Positions 16,015-62,777 of a stretch of 64,000 nt of DNA are shown piece by piece. How positions within the stretch are numbered: position 1 is the first letter of the stretch; each line of letters starts with the position of its first letter. The DNA comes from an uncultured Bacilli bacterium. Lineage in GTDB: Bacteria; Bacillota_I; Bacilli_A; RF39; UBA660. Location: positions 472,737-536,736 of the forward strand of contig CAKOHZ010000001.1 in the NCBI GenBank assembly GCA_934086315.1, given 5' to 3'. Below the pieces are notes generated by a model. The model saw only the letters and a program-made list of their open reading frames with translations. It was not told the origin of the DNA and ran no database searches. Made by a program: the position numbers and the translations under genes.

Positions 16015-16090
16015 TGGTGACCCGTACGGGATTTGAACCCATAAATGCACGCGTGAAAGGCGTGTGTGTTAACCGTTTCACCAACGGGCC
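16015..16090 (-). tRNA. tRNA-Glu (anticodon UUC)
   Basis: Reverse complement GGCCCGTTGGTGAAACGG...CACGC-CTTTCAC-GCGTG...GGGTTCAAATCCC...CCA folds as a cloverleaf with TTC in the anticodon loop. Confidence 0.8.
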
Positions 16091-16099
16091 ATTTATTAA

Positions 16100-16175
16100 T
16101 GGTGGGCCTGAATGGACTTGAACCATCGACCTTTCGCTTATCAGACGAACGCTCTAACCAGCTGAGCTACAGGCC
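16100..16175 (-). tRNA. tRNA-Ile (anticodon GAU)
   Basis: Reverse complement GGGCCTGTAGCTCAGCTGGTTAGAGCG-TTCGT-CTGATAA-GCGAA...GGTTCAAGTCC...CCA. Confidence 0.8.
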
Positions 16176-16336
16176 CATATCGCCACTTAATCGGCTGACT
16201 ACTTAATAATACAGTATTTTTTGCAATAATGCAACACTTTTTTTACAAAAATATCAATATTTTTAATAAATTTTATAAAATATTGCAAAAATAGTGCATT
16301 TATTGTATCATTATATATGAAAATAGGAGGAAAATT

Positions 16337-24240: not shown

Positions 24241-24254
24241 TGACGCATAAATCT

Positions 24255-24460
24255 TTGAAGTGGAGAAGTAATATATAGATGTTTTAAAGAGAGTTAGTGG
24301 CTGGTGAAAACTAATAAAACTATATATATGAATAACACCACTGAGTGGAACATTGAAATTCTAGTAAATGTTCTCGGTTAATCCGTTATAAAAATAAAGT
24401 TAATAAGAGGGATGGTACCGTCTATTTTTAGACTCCTTGTACTATCTCTCTTTTTTTGAA
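24255..24460 (+). ncRNA. T-box riboswitch leader (probable Asn specifier AAC)
   Basis: Stem I AGAGAG...GGTGAAAA elements, specifier-loop AUAACA, conserved T-box sequence agagGGATGGTACCGtc, and terminator gatggtac...gtactatc + T-tract directly upstream of asnS. Confidence 0.75.
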
Positions 24461-24479: not shown

Positions 24480-25859
24480 ATGGACGTTAAAGATTTATTT
24501 AAAGATATTTTAAAGTACGAAAATAAAGACGTTACTTTAGAAGGCTGGGTTCGTAATAATAGAAATCAATCAAATTTCGGATTCATTGATTTTAATGATG
24601 GAACTTATTTTCAAAGCTTACAATTAGTATATGAAAAAGAATTAAAAGGCTTTGATAGTATTAGTAAAATTAGAGTAGGAAGCGCTATAAGAGTAAATGG
24701 TACTATTGTTAAATCTGAAGGTAGTGGTCAAAGCCATGAAATGAAAGTTAAAAGTGTTGAAGTATTAGGAGATTCACCTGAAGATTATCCAATTCAACCA
24801 AAAAGACATACAAGAGAATTCTTAAGAGAAGTAGCATACTTAAGACCAAGAACTAATTTATTTAATGCAGTATTTAGAGTAAGAAGTGTAGCTGCTCAAG
24901 CAATACATGAATACTTCCAAAGTCATAACTATGTATATTTTCATAGTCCAATCATAACAGGAGCAGATTGTGAAGGATCAGGACAAATGTTCAAAATAAC
25001 TACTCTTGATATGAATAATCTTCCTTTAGGGGAAGATAAAAAAGTTGATTTTAAGAAAGATTTGTTTGGTAAACAAACATATATAACAGGTTCTGGTCAA
25101 CTTCATGGAGAAACTTTCGCTTTAGCGTACAAAAAGATATATACATTTGGTCCAACTATGAGAACAGAAAACTCAAATACTAAAACACATGCTAATGAAT
25201 TCTGGATGATTGAACCAGAAGTAGCATTCTGTGACCTAAATGGAATAATGGACATCGAAGAAGAAATGTTAAAATTCATAGTTAAATATGTTATGGACAA
25301 ATGTCCTTTAGAAATAGACTTCTTCGACAAATTCGTAGAGAAAGGATTAAAAGAAAAACTTACTAAAGTATTAAATACTAAGTTTGTACGTATTACTCAT
25401 AAAGAAGCAATTACTTTATTAAAAGAAGCTAAAGTTGACTTTGAATTCAAACCAGAATATGGCGAAGACATCGCTAAAGAACATGAAAAGTATATAACAG
25501 AACACTTTAATGGACCAGTATTTATTACTAATTGGCCAAAAGACATTAAAGCATTCTATATGAAATTAAATGAGGATAATGAAACAGTAGCAGCAGTTGA
25601 CTTAGAAGTACCAGGTTCTGGTGAACTAATGGGTGGAAGTCAAAGAGAAGATGACTACGATAAATTAATTAATAGAATGAAAGAAATGAATATACCAAGA
25701 GAAAACTTAGAATGGTATACTAACTTAAGAAGATTTGGAGGATGTTATCACTCAGGATTTGGTCTTGGATTTGAAAGACTTATTATGTACCTAACAGGTA
25801 TTGAAAACATAAGAGATGTAATTCCATATCCAAGAACACCTAATAACTGCGACTACTAA
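24480..25859 (+). CDS. asnS: Asparaginyl-tRNA synthetase
   Basis: Class IIb aaRS, 459 aa. N-terminal OB fold and QPKRHTREFLREVAYLRPRTN are typical of AsnRS. Confidence 0.8.
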   Translation: MDVKDLFKDILKYENKDVTLEGWVRNNRNQSNFGFIDFNDGTYFQSLQLVYEKELKGFDSISKIRVGSAIRVNGTIVKSEGSGQSHEMKVKSVEVLGDSPEDYPIQPKRHTREFLREVAYLRPRTNLFNAVFRVRSVAAQAIHEYFQSHNYVYFHSPIITGADCEGSGQMFKITTLDMNNLPLGEDKKVDFKKDLFGKQTYITGSGQLHGETFALAYKKIYTFGPTMRTENSNTKTHANEFWMIEPEVAFCDLNGIMDIEEEMLKFIVKYVMDKCPLEIDFFDKFVEKGLKEKLTKVLNTKFVRITHKEAITLLKEAKVDFEFKPEYGEDIAKEHEKYITEHFNGPVFITNWPKDIKAFYMKLNEDNETVAAVDLEVPGSGELMGGSQREDDYDKLINRMKEMNIPRENLEWYTNLRRFGGCYHSGFGLGFERLIMYLTGIENIRDVIPYPRTPNNCDY

Positions 25860-55556: not shown

Positions 55557-56147
55557 ATGAATGAGTTTGAAAGAAAAGTAGAAGAGTTAAAAGAAGTCTA
55601 TGCTAAAAAACCAGATGAAACAATAAATGGTATTAATGATCTAGTTTTTAATTTAAAATTTAAAAGTGATAGCCCATTTGTCAAAGAAATACCAAAATCA
55701 CTTATAACTGGAGTTTATATACTAATTGTATTATTATTAGGCCTAGCAAATTTAAAAGATGGAGCAGAAAATATGGGAGCTTACTATGGAGGGGCAGCAT
55801 TCTTTTTAGCAGGGTTATTCGTCGAATTAAATGCTGGAGGAATGGGTATTATATTTTTATTTTCTCATGGATGCACAGGCTTGGCTTTGATGACTGTGCC
55901 AAAAGTGATCAGCATATTAAATAGCCCAATTTTAACTGATGGCGCAAACAATATAAAAATATTGTTGATATTATCACTGGCACTTATCGTAGTAGGACTT
56001 ATTCTTGCAATGCTATATGGTTCTAGTGGACAATTTAAAAGAAAAAAATATAGTTTAATCATAACTTTATCATTTTTTTTAATAGCTATAGCTATTATTC
56101 AATTTCTTCCAATTATATATAATATACCAATTGATTCAGTATTCTAA
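55557..56147 (+). CDS. Polytopic membrane protein, unknown function
   Basis: 196 aa, 5-6 TM segments, Gly-rich. Confidence 0.5.
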   Translation: MNEFERKVEELKEVYAKKPDETINGINDLVFNLKFKSDSPFVKEIPKSLITGVYILIVLLLGLANLKDGAENMGAYYGGAAFFLAGLFVELNAGGMGIIFLFSHGCTGLALMTVPKVISILNSPILTDGANNIKILLILSLALIVVGLILAMLYGSSGQFKRKKYSLIITLSFFLIAIAIIQFLPIIYNIPIDSVF

Positions 56148-56210: not shown

Positions 56211-56269
56211 TTGACTTTGCTAAAAATGCATACTATAATATTACTAGCACTAAAAGGAAAAGAGTGCTA
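56211..56269 (+). promoter_or_regulatory. hrcA-grpE-dnaK promoter TTGACT-17-TATAAT with a CIRCE operator (TAGCACT-N9/10-GAGTGCTA)
   Basis: ttgact at 56211, tataat at 56234, then tagcactaaaaggaaaagagtgcta at 56245-56269. An extra half-site ttagcact sits at 56197. Confidence 0.8.
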
Positions 56270-56282
56270 AAGGAGGTATAAT

Positions 56283-57290
56283 GTGATAGGGAGTAGACAA
56301 AGAGAACTATTAAGAGCAATAGTTGAAGAATATGTAAAAACTGCAAGACCTGTTGGAAGCAAATCATTATGTAAAAAGTTTAAATGTTCTAGTGCTACTA
56401 TCAGAAATGATATGGCTGCTCTTGAAGATTTAGGCTACTTAGAAAAAACACATATATCTTCAGGAAGAGTTCCATCTGAAAGTGGATATAGATATTATGT
56501 TGATAATTTGATGGAGCCAAGAAAAATAAGTGGAGAAGATATGCTTAAACTTCAAACTATATTTAACAACAACGAACTTGCTTTAAGTGATGCAATAAGT
56601 AAAAGTTTGGAAATTATAAGTGATATGACAAACTACACTTCAGTAATTCTTGGTAAAGAATCAAGTGATAACAAATTGCAAAGAGTAGAAGTTGTTCCAA
56701 TAACAAGTAGACAACTAATCGCTATTGTAATTACTGATAAAGGTCATGTTGAAAACAAGAATATAAATCTTGAAGAAAACATACCTGTAGAAGAAATATC
56801 TAAAACAACAGAATTGTTAAACAAAATGTTAATTGGGACGCCTATAGATGAAGTTCCTAGTAGATTAGAGTTTGAAATAAAACCTATAATTGGTAATTAT
56901 GTTCAAAACTATGAAGTTGTATATAATGCATTTTATAATGCACTTACAAACTTCACTAATGAAAGGGACGTTAGATTTACAGGTAAAGCTAATATATTAA
57001 AACAACCGGAATTCGGAACAGTTGATGATGTTAAAAACATTATAAGTAAATTTGAAAGCAAAGATATGGTGAGTAAAATTGAAGAAAGTGACGATGAGGT
57101 TAAGGTATATATTGGTAGCGAATCTGAAATAGATGACAATGTAACAGTTGTTAAAACGAAATATAATGCTGGTGGTAGAGAAGGTACTATCGCAGTAATA
57201 GGTCCAAAAAGAATGGAATATGAAAGAGTAGTAAATATGCTTGAGTATCTAAAAGAAAATATAGAGAAAAAGTATAATAACGATAAATGA
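56283..57290 (+). CDS. hrcA: Heat-inducible transcription repressor HrcA
   Basis: GSRQRELLRAIVEEYVKTARPVGSK winged helix. GTG start 6 nt after AAGGAGG. 335 aa. Confidence 0.85.
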   Translation: MIGSRQRELLRAIVEEYVKTARPVGSKSLCKKFKCSSATIRNDMAALEDLGYLEKTHISSGRVPSESGYRYYVDNLMEPRKISGEDMLKLQTIFNNNELALSDAISKSLEIISDMTNYTSVILGKESSDNKLQRVEVVPITSRQLIAIVITDKGHVENKNINLEENIPVEEISKTTELLNKMLIGTPIDEVPSRLEFEIKPIIGNYVQNYEVVYNAFYNALTNFTNERDVRFTGKANILKQPEFGTVDDVKNIISKFESKDMVSKIEESDDEVKVYIGSESEIDDNVTVVKTKYNAGGREGTIAVIGPKRMEYERVVNMLEYLKENIEKKYNNDK

Positions 57291-57307: not shown

Positions 57308-57943
57308 ATGGCTAAAAGATCAAAAGACGAAGAAATAAAGAAAACAAATTGTGACGAAAGTTGCGATTGTGGATGTAATGAAGGAAACGAATGTAACTGC
57401 GAAGATGTACATGAAGAAGTAAAACAAGAAGAAAGCGGATGCGCAGGTTCATGCGATGGATGTTCAGGTTGTGGAACAATAGATCCAGAAATGGTAATTC
57501 AAATCCTTGAAAATAGAAATAAAGAATTAGAAGAAAAATATATGCGTTTACAAGCTGAATATTTAAACTTCAAAACAAGAACTCAAAGTGAAATAAGTAA
57601 AATGCTTCAATACGAAGGTGAATCATTCATCAAAGAAATCTTAGTAGTTAAAGATAACCTAGAAAGAGCTATTATGATGGATGACAATGATTTATCTGAT
57701 GAAGTAAGTAAATTCTTAAGCGGATTTAAAATGATACTTGGAAATCTTACTGCTTTACTAGACAAATTCGAAGTTCGTGAAGTAGAGTGCTTAGGACTAG
57801 AATTTGATCCTCATGTAGCTGAAGCTGTACTTACTGAACACGATGAAAATAAACCTGAAAATGTAGTACTTGAAGTACTAACTAAAGGTTATAAATATAA
57901 AGATAAAGTTATTAGACATGCTATGGTAAAAGTAAATAAATAA
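57308..57943 (+). CDS. grpE: Nucleotide exchange factor GrpE with a Cys-rich N-terminal extension
   Basis: GrpE core (LQAEYLNFKTR...FDPHVAEAV...) preceded by 12 Cys in ~45 residues (CDESCDCGCNEGNECNC...GCAGSCDGCSGCG). Confidence 0.85.
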   Translation: MAKRSKDEEIKKTNCDESCDCGCNEGNECNCEDVHEEVKQEESGCAGSCDGCSGCGTIDPEMVIQILENRNKELEEKYMRLQAEYLNFKTRTQSEISKMLQYEGESFIKEILVVKDNLERAIMMDDNDLSDEVSKFLSGFKMILGNLTALLDKFEVREVECLGLEFDPHVAEAVLTEHDENKPENVVLEVLTKGYKYKDKVIRHAMVKVNK

Positions 57944-59800
<1,857 letters not shown>

Positions 59801-59865: not shown

Positions 59866-61632
59866 ATGGATAAATACAAATGGGACTTAACTAAATTATT
59901 TAAAAGTGATGAAGACTTTAATGAAACAATAAATAGAGTAACAAAACTATTAGATGAAATAGTTAAATACAAAGGAAGAATATTTGAAAGTGAAGAGACT
60001 TTATTAGAATTCTTAAAACTTGATACCGAGATAGATATATTAATAGAAAGAATATATATTTATGCATATCTTGGATACTATGACAACATGAGTGATGAAG
60101 AATTCTTAGTAAAGAAAGAAAAAGCTAATAATATAATGAATACTTCTTCAAGTGTAAGAACATTTGTAACTCCAGAAATTCTAAGTAAAGATTATAAAGA
60201 AGTACAAGAATTATTATCTAAAAATAAAGAACTAGAAAAATATAAATTTGCATTTGAAAAAATATTTAGAAGAAAAGAACATATACTTAGTGAACCTGAA
60301 GAATTATTGTTATCAAATGTAAGTGAAACATTTACAACTGCAAGAGATGCATTCAATGCATTAGATAATGTAGATATAGATTTAGGTTATATCAAAGATG
60401 AAGAAGGAAAGAAAGTAGAATTAACTTCTTCAAACTATGTAAGATATATTACATCAAAGAATAGAAATGTAAGAAAAAATGCATTTAAAAAAGATAATAA
60501 ATATTATGAAAAACATATAAATACTTTAAGTGCTTTGTATGCAGGAAAAGTTAAAACAAATGCATTTATTTCAAAGACGAGAAAATATAATAGTATCTTA
60601 GAAATGTATTTATTCAGTGATAAAATAAGTAGAAAATTGTATGAAAATTTAATAAAAATCACAAATAAAAATACTAAATACTTAAAAGAATATTACAAAT
60701 TAAAAGGAAAAGAACTTGGATATAAACTACATTTATATGATACATATGTAAATACATCTTCTATGCCTAAAAAAGATATTCCATATGAAGAAGGAATTAA
60801 AATAATTAATAAAGCATTATCTCCACTTGGAGAAGATTATTTAAAAGAATTTAATAGACTATTAAATAGTAATGTAGTAGATGTATATCCAAAAAAAGCT
60901 AAAAGAAGCGGTGCATTCGAATGGTGTACATATGGAGTAGATCCTTACGTATCATTAAACTATGAAAATGATATTGATTCAGTAAGTACACTTGCTCATG
61001 AAATGGGACATGCTATGCATAGTTATTATAGTAATACAAATCAAGATTACATAAATGCAGACTATCCAATCTTTTTAGCAGAAATCGCATCAACAGTAAA
61101 TGAAGCATTACTTTCTAATTATTTAATTAAAAATAGTAGTGATAAAGATGAAAAAATATATTATCTAGTAGAATTTTTAGATAAATTCAAAGGAACTGTT
61201 TATAGACAAATGATGTTCGCTGAATTTGAATATATAATACATAAAATGTATGAAAAAGGTGAAGCAATTACTAAAGACTTATTATGTAAGACTTACTATG
61301 ATTTAAACAAAAAAGAATTTGGCGGTGCTGTAGTAGTAGACAAAGATATTCAATATGAATGGTCAAAAATTCCACATTTTTATTCATCATTCTATGTTTA
61401 TAAATATGCTACTGGATTCATAAGTGCACTTTTAATCGCAGATAAATTAGAAAAAGACAAAAACTTTAAAGATAAATATATAGAATTTTTAAGTAGTGGT
61501 TGTAGTGATTATCCACTAGAATTATTAAATAAACTTGGAATAGATTTAGCAGATGAGAATACACTAGATAACGCATTCCAACTATTTAATGAAAAAGTAA
61601 AATTACTAAATGAATATATGAATGGAGAGTAG
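59866..61632 (+). CDS. pepF: Oligoendopeptidase F (M3B family)
   Basis: HEMGHAMH zinc motif, 588 aa, M3-type architecture. Confidence 0.8.
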
Positions 61633-61634
61633 TT

Positions 61635-62777
61635 ATGGCAAAAAGAGATTATTATGAAGTTTTAGGTGTATCAAAAGATGCAACTGAAGCAGAAATAAAA
61701 AGTGCTTTTAGAAAAAAAGCTAAAGAATTTCACCCAGATCTAAATAAGAGTCCAGACGCACCAGAAAAATTCAAAGAAGCACAAGAAGCATATGCATGCC
61801 TTTCAGATAAAGATAATCGTGCTAAATATGATAAATATGGTCACGCAGCATTTGAAAATCCTTATGGAAATGCAGGCGGTGGAGCTAGCTATGGAGGCGG
61901 AGCTAATCCATTCGGAAACTTCGATTTCAGTGATATCTTTGATGATTTATTTGGCGGTTCAGGTTTCAGTTCATTTAGTGGATTTGGTGGTGGAAATAGA
62001 TCATCATCAAGAGCTCGTAAAGGAAGCGATTCACTTTATGGAATGAAAATAGACTTTATGGAAGCTGTTTATGGTTGCAAAAAAGATATAGATTTAGAAT
62101 ACTATGAAAATTGTGAAGATTGCGATGGCTTAGGTGGTCATGGAGAAACAACTTGTTCAGAATGTAATGGTTCAGGATATGTTGTAAGACAAACAAATAC
62201 AATCTTTGGAGCAATGCAAAGTAGAACAGTATGTCCAGAATGCAACGGAAAAGGAAAAACTTATAAAACAAGATGTAACACATGCAAAGGCAATGGAAAA
62301 ATCAAAGTACAAAAAACAATCACAATTGATATTCCAGCTGGTATAGATAATGGAGAACAACTAAGATTAAGTGGAAAAGGTGAACCAGGAGTAAATGGTG
62401 GACCAAATGGAGACTTATATATTGAAATTAGAATTAAACCAGATGACAATTATAAAAGAGAAGGAAACGATATATATTTAGAAGTACCAGTTACTATAAC
62501 AGATCTATGTTTAGGTGCAACTAAAACAATAAAAACAATTGATGGATACGTAGATTTAAAAATTAAAGATGGAAGTCAACCAGGAGATATCCTTAGAATA
62601 AAAGGAAAGGGTATCAATAATCCAGATTCTTGGAAAAAAGGAGACTTCTATTGTGTACTTAAACTAATAATTCCAACAAGTCTATCAAGAAAACAAAAAC
62701 AAATCCTAGAAGAACTTGAAGACACAGATCTAGAAGATTCAAGCGAATTCAAGAAATTTGCAAAATTAAATAAATAG
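61635..62777 (+). CDS. dnaJ: Chaperone DnaJ
   Basis: J domain (DYYEVLGV...HPD), G/F region, four CxxCxGxG zinc repeats. Confidence 0.9.

Follow-up and report, generated by a model that had tools for sequence, protein, structure and literature searches.

A cysteine-rich N-terminal tail on GrpE of uncultured gut Bacilli, with a conserved four-cysteine motif and a probable copy of a portable seven-cysteine module

The DNA analysed here is a stretch of 64,000 nucleotides, hereafter called the window, from an uncultured Bacilli bacterium (GenBank assembly GCA_934086315.1, contig CAKOHZ010000001.1, positions 472,737 to 536,736). On its plus strand it carries grpE, which codes for the nucleotide exchange factor of the Hsp70 chaperone DnaK, and the GrpE protein has a cysteine-rich N-terminal tail. 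The tail contains two cysteine units, a distal one that is best read as a diverged copy of a portable seven-cysteine module and a proximal four-cysteine motif (C4) next to the stalk helix. A preliminary description of the window had reported 12 cysteines at 57344-57478. The segment was found there, as codons 13-57 of grpE and with the strings CDESCDCGCNEGNECNC and GCAGSCDGCSGCG, but it holds 10 cysteines and not 12. The gene and its parts are given below in window coordinates; related loci are designated by L numbers.

57308..57943, plus strand: grpE coding sequence including the cysteine-rich tail, 211 aa
57295..57300, plus strand: Shine-Dalgarno (SD) sequence AAGGAG, 7 nt ahead of the grpE ATG; from the sequence, with an AAAGGAG-type site also before the start in L001-L008
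57308..57343, plus strand: Lys/Glu-rich leader MAKRSKDEEIKK, aa 1-12; consensus of relatives MKKxxKxxEExxK
57344..57400, plus strand: distal module TNCDESCDCGCNEGNECNC, aa 13-31; probable diverged copy, with 6 of the 7 Cys, of CxCx3CxCGCx[ED]GxxCxC
57401..57439, plus strand: acidic variable linker EDVHEEVKQEESG, aa 32-44; length and sequence vary, and relatives insert extra CxC units here
57440..57475, plus strand: proximal motif C-AGS-C-DG-C-SG-C-G, that is C-x3-C-x2-C-x2-C-G, aa 45-56
57476..57490, plus strand: conserved TIDPE, aa 57-61, capping the beginning of the long stalk helix; D59 at least 90% conserved
57494..57940, plus strand: canonical GrpE domain (stalk helix, four-helix bundle, beta domain), aa 63-211; from PF01025, 4ANI, 1DKG and AlphaFold2 (AF2)

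The assignment of the protein was unambiguous. Residues 63-211 matched PF01025 with 147.1 bits (E 5e-43; cut-off 25.8), and the NCBIfam GrpE equivalog NF010738 scored 137.7 bits (cut-off 137). The core was aligned to the solved structures 4ANI (query residues 64-210, E 4e-26) and 1DKG (query residues 60-210, E 7e-15), and the GrpE architecture was recovered, with a disordered N terminus, a long stalk helix, a helical bundle and a C-terminal beta domain. AF2, run on the full protein with a 71-sequence alignment, placed helices at residues 60-90, 93-123 and 131-153 and strands at 156-210, with low overall confidence (predicted local distance difference test [pLDDT] score of 59). The view of the preliminary description that the GrpE tail is normally unstructured agrees with a 2025 review, in which the role of the N terminus is treated as unresolved and debated, and zinc and metals are unmentioned (PMC12987570).

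Residues 13-57 read TNCDESCDCGCNEGNECNCEDVHEEVKQEESGCAGSCDGCSGCGT, with cysteines at positions 15, 19, 21, 23, 29, 31, 45, 49, 52 and 55 (n=10). The background frequency of Cys was 1.03% over 18,773 residues in the other 54 plus-strand open reading frames (ORFs) of the window, and the binomial probability of at least 10 Cys per 45 residues at that frequency is about 3e-11. The second-richest 45-residue stretch of the window is the zinc-finger domain of DnaJ, with 6 Cys, and no further genuine Cys-rich ORF was found in the window or in 63 related loci.

We considered whether this segment is made at all. The stop codon of hrcA lies 17 nt upstream of the grpE ATG at 57308, and the first ATG is preceded by the SD sequence. 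Met62, the sole internal methionine, lacks such a site and is a methionine in 30 of the 82 aligned relatives. Because of the SD sequence before the first ATG and the lack of a conserved internal start, the sequence data indicate that the N-terminal Cys segment is translated, and the idea that the true start is internal, which the preliminary description had raised against its own proposal, does not hold. The other doubt voiced there, that the segment is an assembly artefact missing from relatives, failed as well, as each of the 120 closest homologues has a Cys-rich N terminus and the assemblies concerned are many and independent. A predicted N-terminal peptide of the tail is, for example, TNCDESCDCGCNEGNECNCEDVHEEVK.

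Nine near-identical genomes, namely the window and L001-L008, provided a record of recent change in the tail. TGT and TGC were exchanged in 5 of the 10 tail Cys codon columns with no amino-acid change, whereas the amino acid varied in 14 of the 50 non-Cys tail columns and in 11 of the 151 core columns. As the Cys codons vary only synonymously while their neighbours vary in amino acid, this pattern indicates that the cysteines are under purifying selection at the protein level and that the intervening residues drift.

Two observations on gene starts and gene integrity in relatives belong here. Probable TTG starts for grpE (translated LKKK...), after an SD sequence of the AAAGGAAAGG type, were seen in L011, L019-L021, L030, L031, L034 and L035, and gene calling restricted to ATG would cut the Cys-rich tail short in such relatives. 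At positions ~4001-4466 of L053, a closed 1.53-Mb chromosome (CP091739.1) from a metagenome-assembled genome (MAG), the grpE frame is broken after ...VLKDNFEK and in-frame stops follow, although the N-terminal part still codes for the Cys motifs; the break is either an assembly frameshift error or a sign of a pseudogene.

The two units of the tail differ in their conservation. The distal unit of the window reads N-C-DES-C-D-C-G-C-N-E-G-N-E-C-N-C, and a fuller form in relatives reads K-C-N-C-x3-C-x-C-G-C-Q-E-G-K-E-C-T-C, followed by extra CxC units. In L035, whose tail has 29 Cys, a 60-bp tandem duplication corresponds to one 20-residue module, and an 18-bp period is also present; tandem repeats at the DNA level were found in that locus only and not in the window tail. 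Comparison among the GrpE relatives, with 4 to 29 Cys in total, indicates that the distal module grows by in-frame duplication.

The proximal motif has the consensus [ED]-S-G-C-x-G-S-C-x-G-C-x-G-C-G, then x-I-D-P-E and the stalk helix. Over 71 diverse sequences, C45, C49 and C55 were invariant and C52 and G54 were at least 90% conserved. The Gly residues that flank the cysteines are conserved as well, and variants include C-x4-C ('CSPDGC') and an extra Cys ('CGGCC'). Its register relative to the fold is fixed, with the last Cys 25-26 residues ahead of RLQAE in 140 of 146 sequences. The alignments with 4ANI and 1DKG place the motif where the disordered tail passes into the paired stalk helices, at their N-terminal end; the AF2 helix begins at residue 60, which pairs with residue 45 of Escherichia coli GrpE in the 1DKG alignment. 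The motif was not found outside GrpE in the 1.25 Mb of sequence that was scanned.

Alignment with GrpE relatives, which the preliminary description had proposed, showed how far the tail extends beyond the window. The closest protein cluster, 99% identical, has 220 member sequences on contigs of up to 1.4 Mb. Each of the 120 best homologues, at 61-99% identity and drawn from assemblies in ENA, Logan, NCBI and JGI, has N-terminal Cys residues, and the Cys-rich tail is thus kept throughout the closest homologues. Among the GTDB species representatives, those that have a related GrpE are MAGs of uncultured gut bacteria, labelled by their depositors as Bacilli, Mollicutes, Tenericutes or Mycoplasmatota bacterium or as 'Clostridium sp. 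CAG:524', and their hosts are humans (including Hadza), rabbit, goat and other ruminants. Members that have a name in the databases are annotated merely as 'nucleotide exchange factor GrpE' (e.g., MCI7083142.1 and MDD3187734.1).

In a neighbour-joining tree of the 148-residue GrpE core, whose resolution is low, all carriers of the proximal motif fell into one clade. Tail Cys numbered 4-29 inside that clade, with 4-Cys and many-Cys lineages interleaved. In the neighbouring lineages, at 59-69% identity, the Lys/Glu tail is short and contains 0-1 Cys (L037, L038, L040-L043, L045-L052 and L055/L056, including 'Clostridium sp. CAG:628'). When a further search was started from the more distant Cys-rich GrpE of L039 (55% identity), 119 of 120 hits had tail Cys. 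Many further GrpE clades, at 45-70% identity, have N termini with CxC arrays but no proximal motif, such as MEKTKNKKCKCEDNSKKECECKECHCDE; in these CxC-only clades the Cys lie at a different distance (16 aa) and the C4 motif is missing. We also looked for small Cys-rich ORFs near the dnaK operon of Cys-less relatives, as expected for a fission or fusion event, and found none.

To learn whether the distal unit occurs elsewhere, we searched metagenome contigs for DNA that could encode C-x-C-G-C-x-[DE]-G-x-x-C-x-C, using a degenerate pattern, and obtained at least 120 loci. Among the matches listed, about a dozen fall in GrpE ORFs, many of the remaining ones are real Cys-rich ORFs in which the extended motif recurs, and others are chance or simple-repeat matches. 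Module-bearing loci occur among L064-L183 (e.g., L101, L086, L161, L138 and L075). Pfam-confirmed carriers are peptidyl-prolyl isomerases of the SlyD-type FKBP family (L086, L134 and L158), histidyl-tRNA synthetase (HisRS; L161 and L179), the anaerobic ribonucleotide reductase NrdD followed by a glutaredoxin domain (L138), a response-regulator diguanylate cyclase (RR-GGDEF; L069), a flavodoxin-like protein (L073), a type I phosphomannose isomerase (PMI; L143) and a SIMPL membrane protein (L075). On these unrelated proteins the module forms terminal tails or insertions, and transmembrane (TM) proteins and secreted repeat proteins are additional carriers. The L086 protein aligned over its full length with E. 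coli SlyD (2KFW; E 2e-30) and has a Cys/His tail at the position of the SlyD tail; its last residues are ...GGCGCDESCDCGCNEGKDCGCN and include the 12-mer CDESCDCGCNEG, which also occurs in the distal module of the window GrpE.

The module is also found on its own. A protein search yielded at least 72 clusters of stand-alone module proteins of 29-76 residues on low-GC contigs (P0233-P0304), with the consensus MEEKKCNCxPDCTCGCQEGKECTC... and the label 'hypothetical protein' where they are labelled at all. They begin with M-E-E-K-K, similar to the GrpE leader, and had no Pfam domain and no NCBIfam model at E <= 10. The search with a stand-alone module gave 86 candidates and no GrpE despite common 5-mers, and the carrier counts are therefore lower bounds. 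Likewise, phmmer with the 62-residue tail against 1.84e9 representative proteins returned two GrpE N termini only, single-sequence searches being insensitive for such a composition.

We therefore turned to a profile. A hidden Markov model (HMM) of 23 positions, built solely from stand-alone module proteins, scored 43 GrpE tails at 30 bits or more, with a top score of 53 bits (E 7.6e-9 for a database of 5.8e9 sequences). The window tail matched end to end over residues 10-31 with 20.7 bits, which is weak at whole-database scale (E 110); the maximum over 1145 composition-matched shuffles of GrpE tails was 8.6 bits. Since a model of the stand-alone proteins scores GrpE tails far above shuffled ones, the distal unit of GrpE is best read as a diverged fused copy of the portable module.

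The preliminary description had called the tail metallothionein-like, which stands as regards composition, CxC motifs and the possession of a module with stand-alone relatives, but not as regards membership of a known metallothionein family. In the window, 10 of residues 15-55 are Cys (10/41, 24%; a content of about 15-30% or more was taken as typical of metallothioneins) and there are no aromatics in residues 13-57. Over 228 GrpE tails, the Cys spans consist of 32.6% Cys, 16% Glu, 12.5% Gly and 10% Asp, with Phe and Trp at 0% and Tyr at 0.1%, and the spacing counts were 756 for CxC, 414 for CxxC and 337 for CxxxC. Metallothioneins are also small and stand alone; this is true of the relatives of the module but not of GrpE, where a 57-residue tail sits on a 211-residue protein. 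The module motif was not found printed in any paper of the literature searched, nor does a Pfam or NCBIfam model of it exist, and we regard the portable module as a candidate for a new bacterial metallothionein-like family.

Several known Cys-containing elements were compared with the tail and set aside. C49-D-G-C52-S-G-C55-G56 fits one CxxCxGxG repeat of the DnaJ-type zinc finger by eye, but PF00684 had no hit on the tail although it hits the DnaJ of the window. The FeoB-associated Cys-rich family PF12669 reached 13.7 bits against a cut-off of 27 on residues 38-55 and was found in 2 of 71 relatives at E >= 0.48, and the protein has no TM helix. C45, C49 and C52 show the CxxxCxxC spacing of radical-SAM or ferredoxin Fe-S sites, but there is no such Pfam domain. 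HSP33 had no Pfam match, and the likeness to Hsp33 is one of functional analogy.

The genes around grpE and the regulatory element of the locus are listed here.

56244..56270, plus strand: inverted repeat resembling CIRCE, the controlling inverted repeat of chaperone expression, CTAGCACTA-N9-GAGTGCTAA, upstream of hrcA; sequence match
56283..57290, plus strand: hrcA, coding for the heat-shock repressor, at the head of the operon; Pfam HrcA (E 8e-52) and HrcA_DNA-bdg
57962..59800, plus strand: dnaK, the partner Hsp70
59866..61632, plus strand: M3 oligoendopeptidase F-like gene, between dnaK and dnaJ; Peptidase_M3 E 4e-71, plus Peptidase_M3_N
61635..62777, plus strand: dnaJ, with a normal CxxCxGxG zinc-finger domain; Pfam DnaJ, DnaJ_CXXCXGXG, DnaJ_C

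The CIRCE-like repeat was found once, with 2 mismatches to TTAGCACTC-N9-GAGTGCTAA and a chance expectation of 0.01. The genomic order hrcA-grpE-dnaK-dnaJ is present with the CIRCE-like repeat, the M3 peptidase gene interrupting the dnaK/dnaJ pair. The placement of grpE in the CIRCE/HrcA regulon by the preliminary description was borne out by the hrcA-grpE-dnaK order and the repeat. The M3 peptidase may be co-regulated with the chaperone operon. An ORF of 587-606 residues, a peptidase-like size, follows dnaK in the relatives L001, L010, L014, L026 and L045, and dnaJ-sized ORFs directly follow dnaK in L009, L054 and L055.

Other features of the window were recorded in passing. Its G+C content is 28%, and nearly all of its long ORFs lie on the plus strand. 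A 196-residue ORF at 55557-56147 (plus strand), just 5' of CIRCE and hrcA, contains a number of hydrophobic stretches and matched nothing in Pfam. A T-box leader (117 bits) is located at 24246-24440 (plus strand), upstream of the ORF at 24480-25859, and two tRNA genes lie at 16018-16176 (minus strand).

Taken together, these features suggest that the Hsp70 machine has acquired an element with metal or redox chemistry. The reading that we prefer, and to which we give an even chance, is that both Cys units bind soft metal ions through their thiolates, the distal array acting as a buffer for metal or oxidants and the proximal motif as a defined centre. Thiolate binding of soft metals is inferred because of the metallothionein composition and spacing and because chaperones with metal-binding tails provide precedents; the ions would most likely be Zn(II), Cu(I) or Cd(II) in both units. 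The distal array fits an autonomous buffer because its copy number is variable and the module is found on unrelated proteins as well. It would buffer metal and oxidants in the manner of a metallothionein, being made in larger amounts under proteotoxic stress through HrcA/CIRCE control and placed beside DnaK, where metal-damaged proteins are handled. The proximal C4 fits a defined metal or disulfide centre because it is invariant, has conserved Gly residues, is restricted to GrpE and keeps a fixed register. In a parallel GrpE dimer, 2 x 4 Cys would be gathered at the N-terminal end of the stalk, and a proximal centre could order the disordered tail and possibly stabilise the dimer or the thermosensor helix. 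An effect on nucleotide exchange or substrate release would be the least supported step of this scheme. The preliminary description had proposed that metal or redox state could be coupled to nucleotide exchange on DnaK; the invariant C4, confined to GrpE and set in a constant stalk register, and the example of GRPEL2 Cys87 (PMC6089081) speak for such a coupling, and the occurrence of the module on unrelated proteins speaks against a regulatory role of the distal part that is peculiar to GrpE.

A number of observations weigh against the thiolate-binding reading. No catalogued metallothionein family matched the window tail, the long variants or the stand-alone proteins at E <= 10 in Pfam or NCBIfam, and no zinc-finger or Fe-S family model of these databases matched the tail. 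AF2 gave the tail a pLDDT below 55, and for a stand-alone module protein (54 sequences) it gave a pLDDT of 65 with no secondary structure. The window copy has 6 of the 7 module Cys, the first being replaced. Metal-homeostasis genes were found beside stand-alone module genes in 1 of 5 neighbourhoods, which is no consistent metal context. The presence of the module on many unrelated proteins weighs against a GrpE-specific regulatory role of the distal part. Finally, DnaK shows no clade-specific gain of Cys when 30 sequences from the C4-motif clade are compared with 11 from Cys-less sister clades, and nothing in it indicates a metal site shared between GrpE and DnaK.

Two side observations touch these comparisons. 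In the neighbourhood of P0289 (GCA_016648615.1), the module gene is two genes downstream of a cation diffusion facilitator (CDF) efflux gene (Cation_efflux plus ZT_dimer) and near an MgtC gene. DnaK residues 162-165 are a fixed E-N-A-H in the C4-motif clade and D-K-x-Q in the 11 Cys-less sister lineages, a change that is among 19 clade-specific positions.

The alternative that survives best, though we hold it to be doubtful, is a redox or zinc switch. The proximal C4, with or without distal Cys, would hold Zn(II) when reduced, and oxidants or electrophiles would eject the metal and give rise to stalk disulfides that gate the DnaK cycle. Such disulfides, within or between subunits, might alter dimer stability, the thermosensor transition or tail-mediated substrate release in a strict anaerobe that meets oxygen. 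The C4 motif has much that a switch would call for, being invariant, flanked by Gly, specific to GrpE and set in a fixed stalk register where the tail adjoins the paired helices, and members of the GrpE family offer precedents, as Cys87 of GRPEL2 forms disulfides between the N-terminal helices under H2O2 (PMC6089081) and Mge1 is an oxidative sensor (PMC3596242). However, many GrpE clades possess only CxC arrays, at the 16-residue distance and without C4, the distal module is portable and found on unrelated proteins, and DnaK shows no matching change.

A bolder reading would make the tail a sensor. Metal occupancy or thiol oxidation of the C4, amplified by the distal array, would then switch the stalk and tail of GrpE and in this way gate exchange or substrate release by DnaK, and the portable unit, CxCGCxEGKxCxC, would represent a widespread and hitherto unrecognised family of bacterial metallothionein modules that can be plugged onto chaperones and housekeeping enzymes. 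We consider this unlikely on present indications.

It is also conceivable, but quite improbable, that the tail serves as a metallochaperone that stores Zn, or Ni or Co, and passes the metal to clients such as DnaJ zinc fingers or new metalloproteins. Some carriers of the module, which we take to be zinc proteins (NrdD with its C-terminal Zn site and the type I PMI), would suit this proposal, as would the replacement of the metal-binding tail of SlyD by the same module and the precedents of HspA and SlyD (PMC3856676). The role would parallel that of SlyD and HspA in nickel enzyme maturation. Nevertheless, the HisRS, GGDEF and flavodoxin-like carriers are not obviously metal-dependent, the operon contains no accessory or target genes, and the window tail has one His, whereas Ni-storage tails are His-rich.

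An Fe-S site is very unlikely. In this case C-x3-C-x2-C(-x2-C) would ligate a [4Fe-4S] or [2Fe-2S] cluster, possibly bridging the subunits, and would sense O2 or NO in the manner of FNR. The N terminus of E. coli FNR carries C-x3-C-x2-C-x5-C and the cluster motif of radical-SAM enzymes is CxxxCxxC, which equals the spacing of C45-x3-C49-x2-C52; the host is an anaerobic gut organism, and the sole Pfam signal on the tail, far below threshold, is that of the FeoB-associated Cys-rich family. Against this, no Fe-S family HMM matched and the PF12669 signal is negligible, and other GrpE clades have CxC doublets in acidic, expandable tails, which are typical of d10 metal-thiolate proteins and not of Fe-S ligands.

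The notion that the Cys stretch is functionless low-complexity growth or the product of a mis-called start is largely refuted and extremely improbable: AT-rich genomes do readily gain K/E/N/D-rich low-complexity tails, TGT is an AT-rich codon, tail length varies widely and one relative has a duplication of the replication-slippage type, but the Cys codons are kept through synonymous changes with C45, C49 and C55 invariant in 71 sequences, tails persist while the GrpE core diverges to ~45-50% identity, a strong SD sequence precedes the first ATG with no conserved internal start, and a separate protein family shows significant similarity to the tail.

The Cys-rich tail is genuine and more widespread than the preliminary description could show. 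In a large radiation of common uncultured bacteria from the gut of humans, rabbits and ruminants, the usual GrpE tail has been swapped for a Cys array, to which one clade adds a conserved four-Cys site at the stalk. A search of the literature on GrpE with cysteine-rich or metallothionein-like features returned nothing relevant, and neither the Cys-rich tail of GrpE, nor the C4 motif specific to it, nor the portable 7-Cys module appears to have been described. The protein itself, being a GrpE, is of a familiar kind, and metal-binding tails are known from other chaperones. If the tail binds metal, Hsp70 would be the third chaperone system, after GroES/HspA and SlyD, with a recruited metal-binding tail; it would provide a natural test of how the GrpE N terminus communicates with DnaK and a pointer to the handling of metal and oxidant stress in reduced-genome anaerobes. 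Should the sensor proposal be true, the bacterial Hsp70 machine would have a direct metal or redox input.

Among known systems, the Anabaena GrpE All4144 likewise has an extra domain, but this addition is reported to be a DNA-binding helix-turn-helix and not a Cys-rich tail (bioRxiv 10.1101/2025.04.14.648684). The bacterial metallothioneins SmtA/BmtA, MymT and Pseudomonas PmtA share with the tail a high Cys content, the absence of aromatics, CxC and CxxC motifs and, as small proteins, a likeness to the stand-alone relatives of the module. They differ in that there is no sequence match, that the module is fused here to a functional protein of 150 residues and that its flanks are acidic; SmtA, moreover, has a His-containing zinc-finger-like fold. 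Hsp33 is a holdase whose four-Cys cluster, CxC-x27-32-CxxC, holds Zn when reduced, as the C4 of GrpE would be expected to do. It offers a conceptual model of a zinc/thiol switch, but no Hsp33 domain is present here, the Cys spacing is different, and a holdase is not an exchange factor.

Human GRPEL2 (Cys87) and yeast Mge1 (Met155) are closer in kind, as members of the GrpE family whose dimer state or activity responds to oxidation (PMC6089081; PMC3596242), and Cys87 of GRPEL2 is a thiol switch in the N-terminal stalk helices (PMC6089081). Unlike them, with their single Cys or Met within the canonical fold, no added domain and no metal, the GrpE described here has 10 Cys (up to 29 in relatives) in an appended tail.

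The nearest parallels come from chaperones outside the Hsp70 system. The His/Cys-rich extension of HspA, the GroES of Helicobacter pylori, has 8 His and 4 Cys. It binds nickel, is dispensable for viability and serves in storage, sequestration and delivery of the metal (PMC3856676). Like the GrpE of the window, HspA is an essential heat-shock-regulated co-chaperone with a lineage-specific low-complexity extension, which in HspA binds metal; unlike it, HspA belongs to Hsp60/10 and not to Hsp70, and its extension is C-terminal and His-rich while that of GrpE is N-terminal and nearly pure Cys plus acidic residues, with no sequence relationship between the two. SlyD, a nickel-binding protein (PMC3856676), differs from GrpE in host protein and terminus, its E. 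coli tail lacks the module pattern, and its role in Ni insertion has no known GrpE counterpart. It is nonetheless a chaperone with an unstructured Cys/His-rich metal-binding tail, and in its metagenomic homologues L086, L134 and L158 this very position is occupied by the module.

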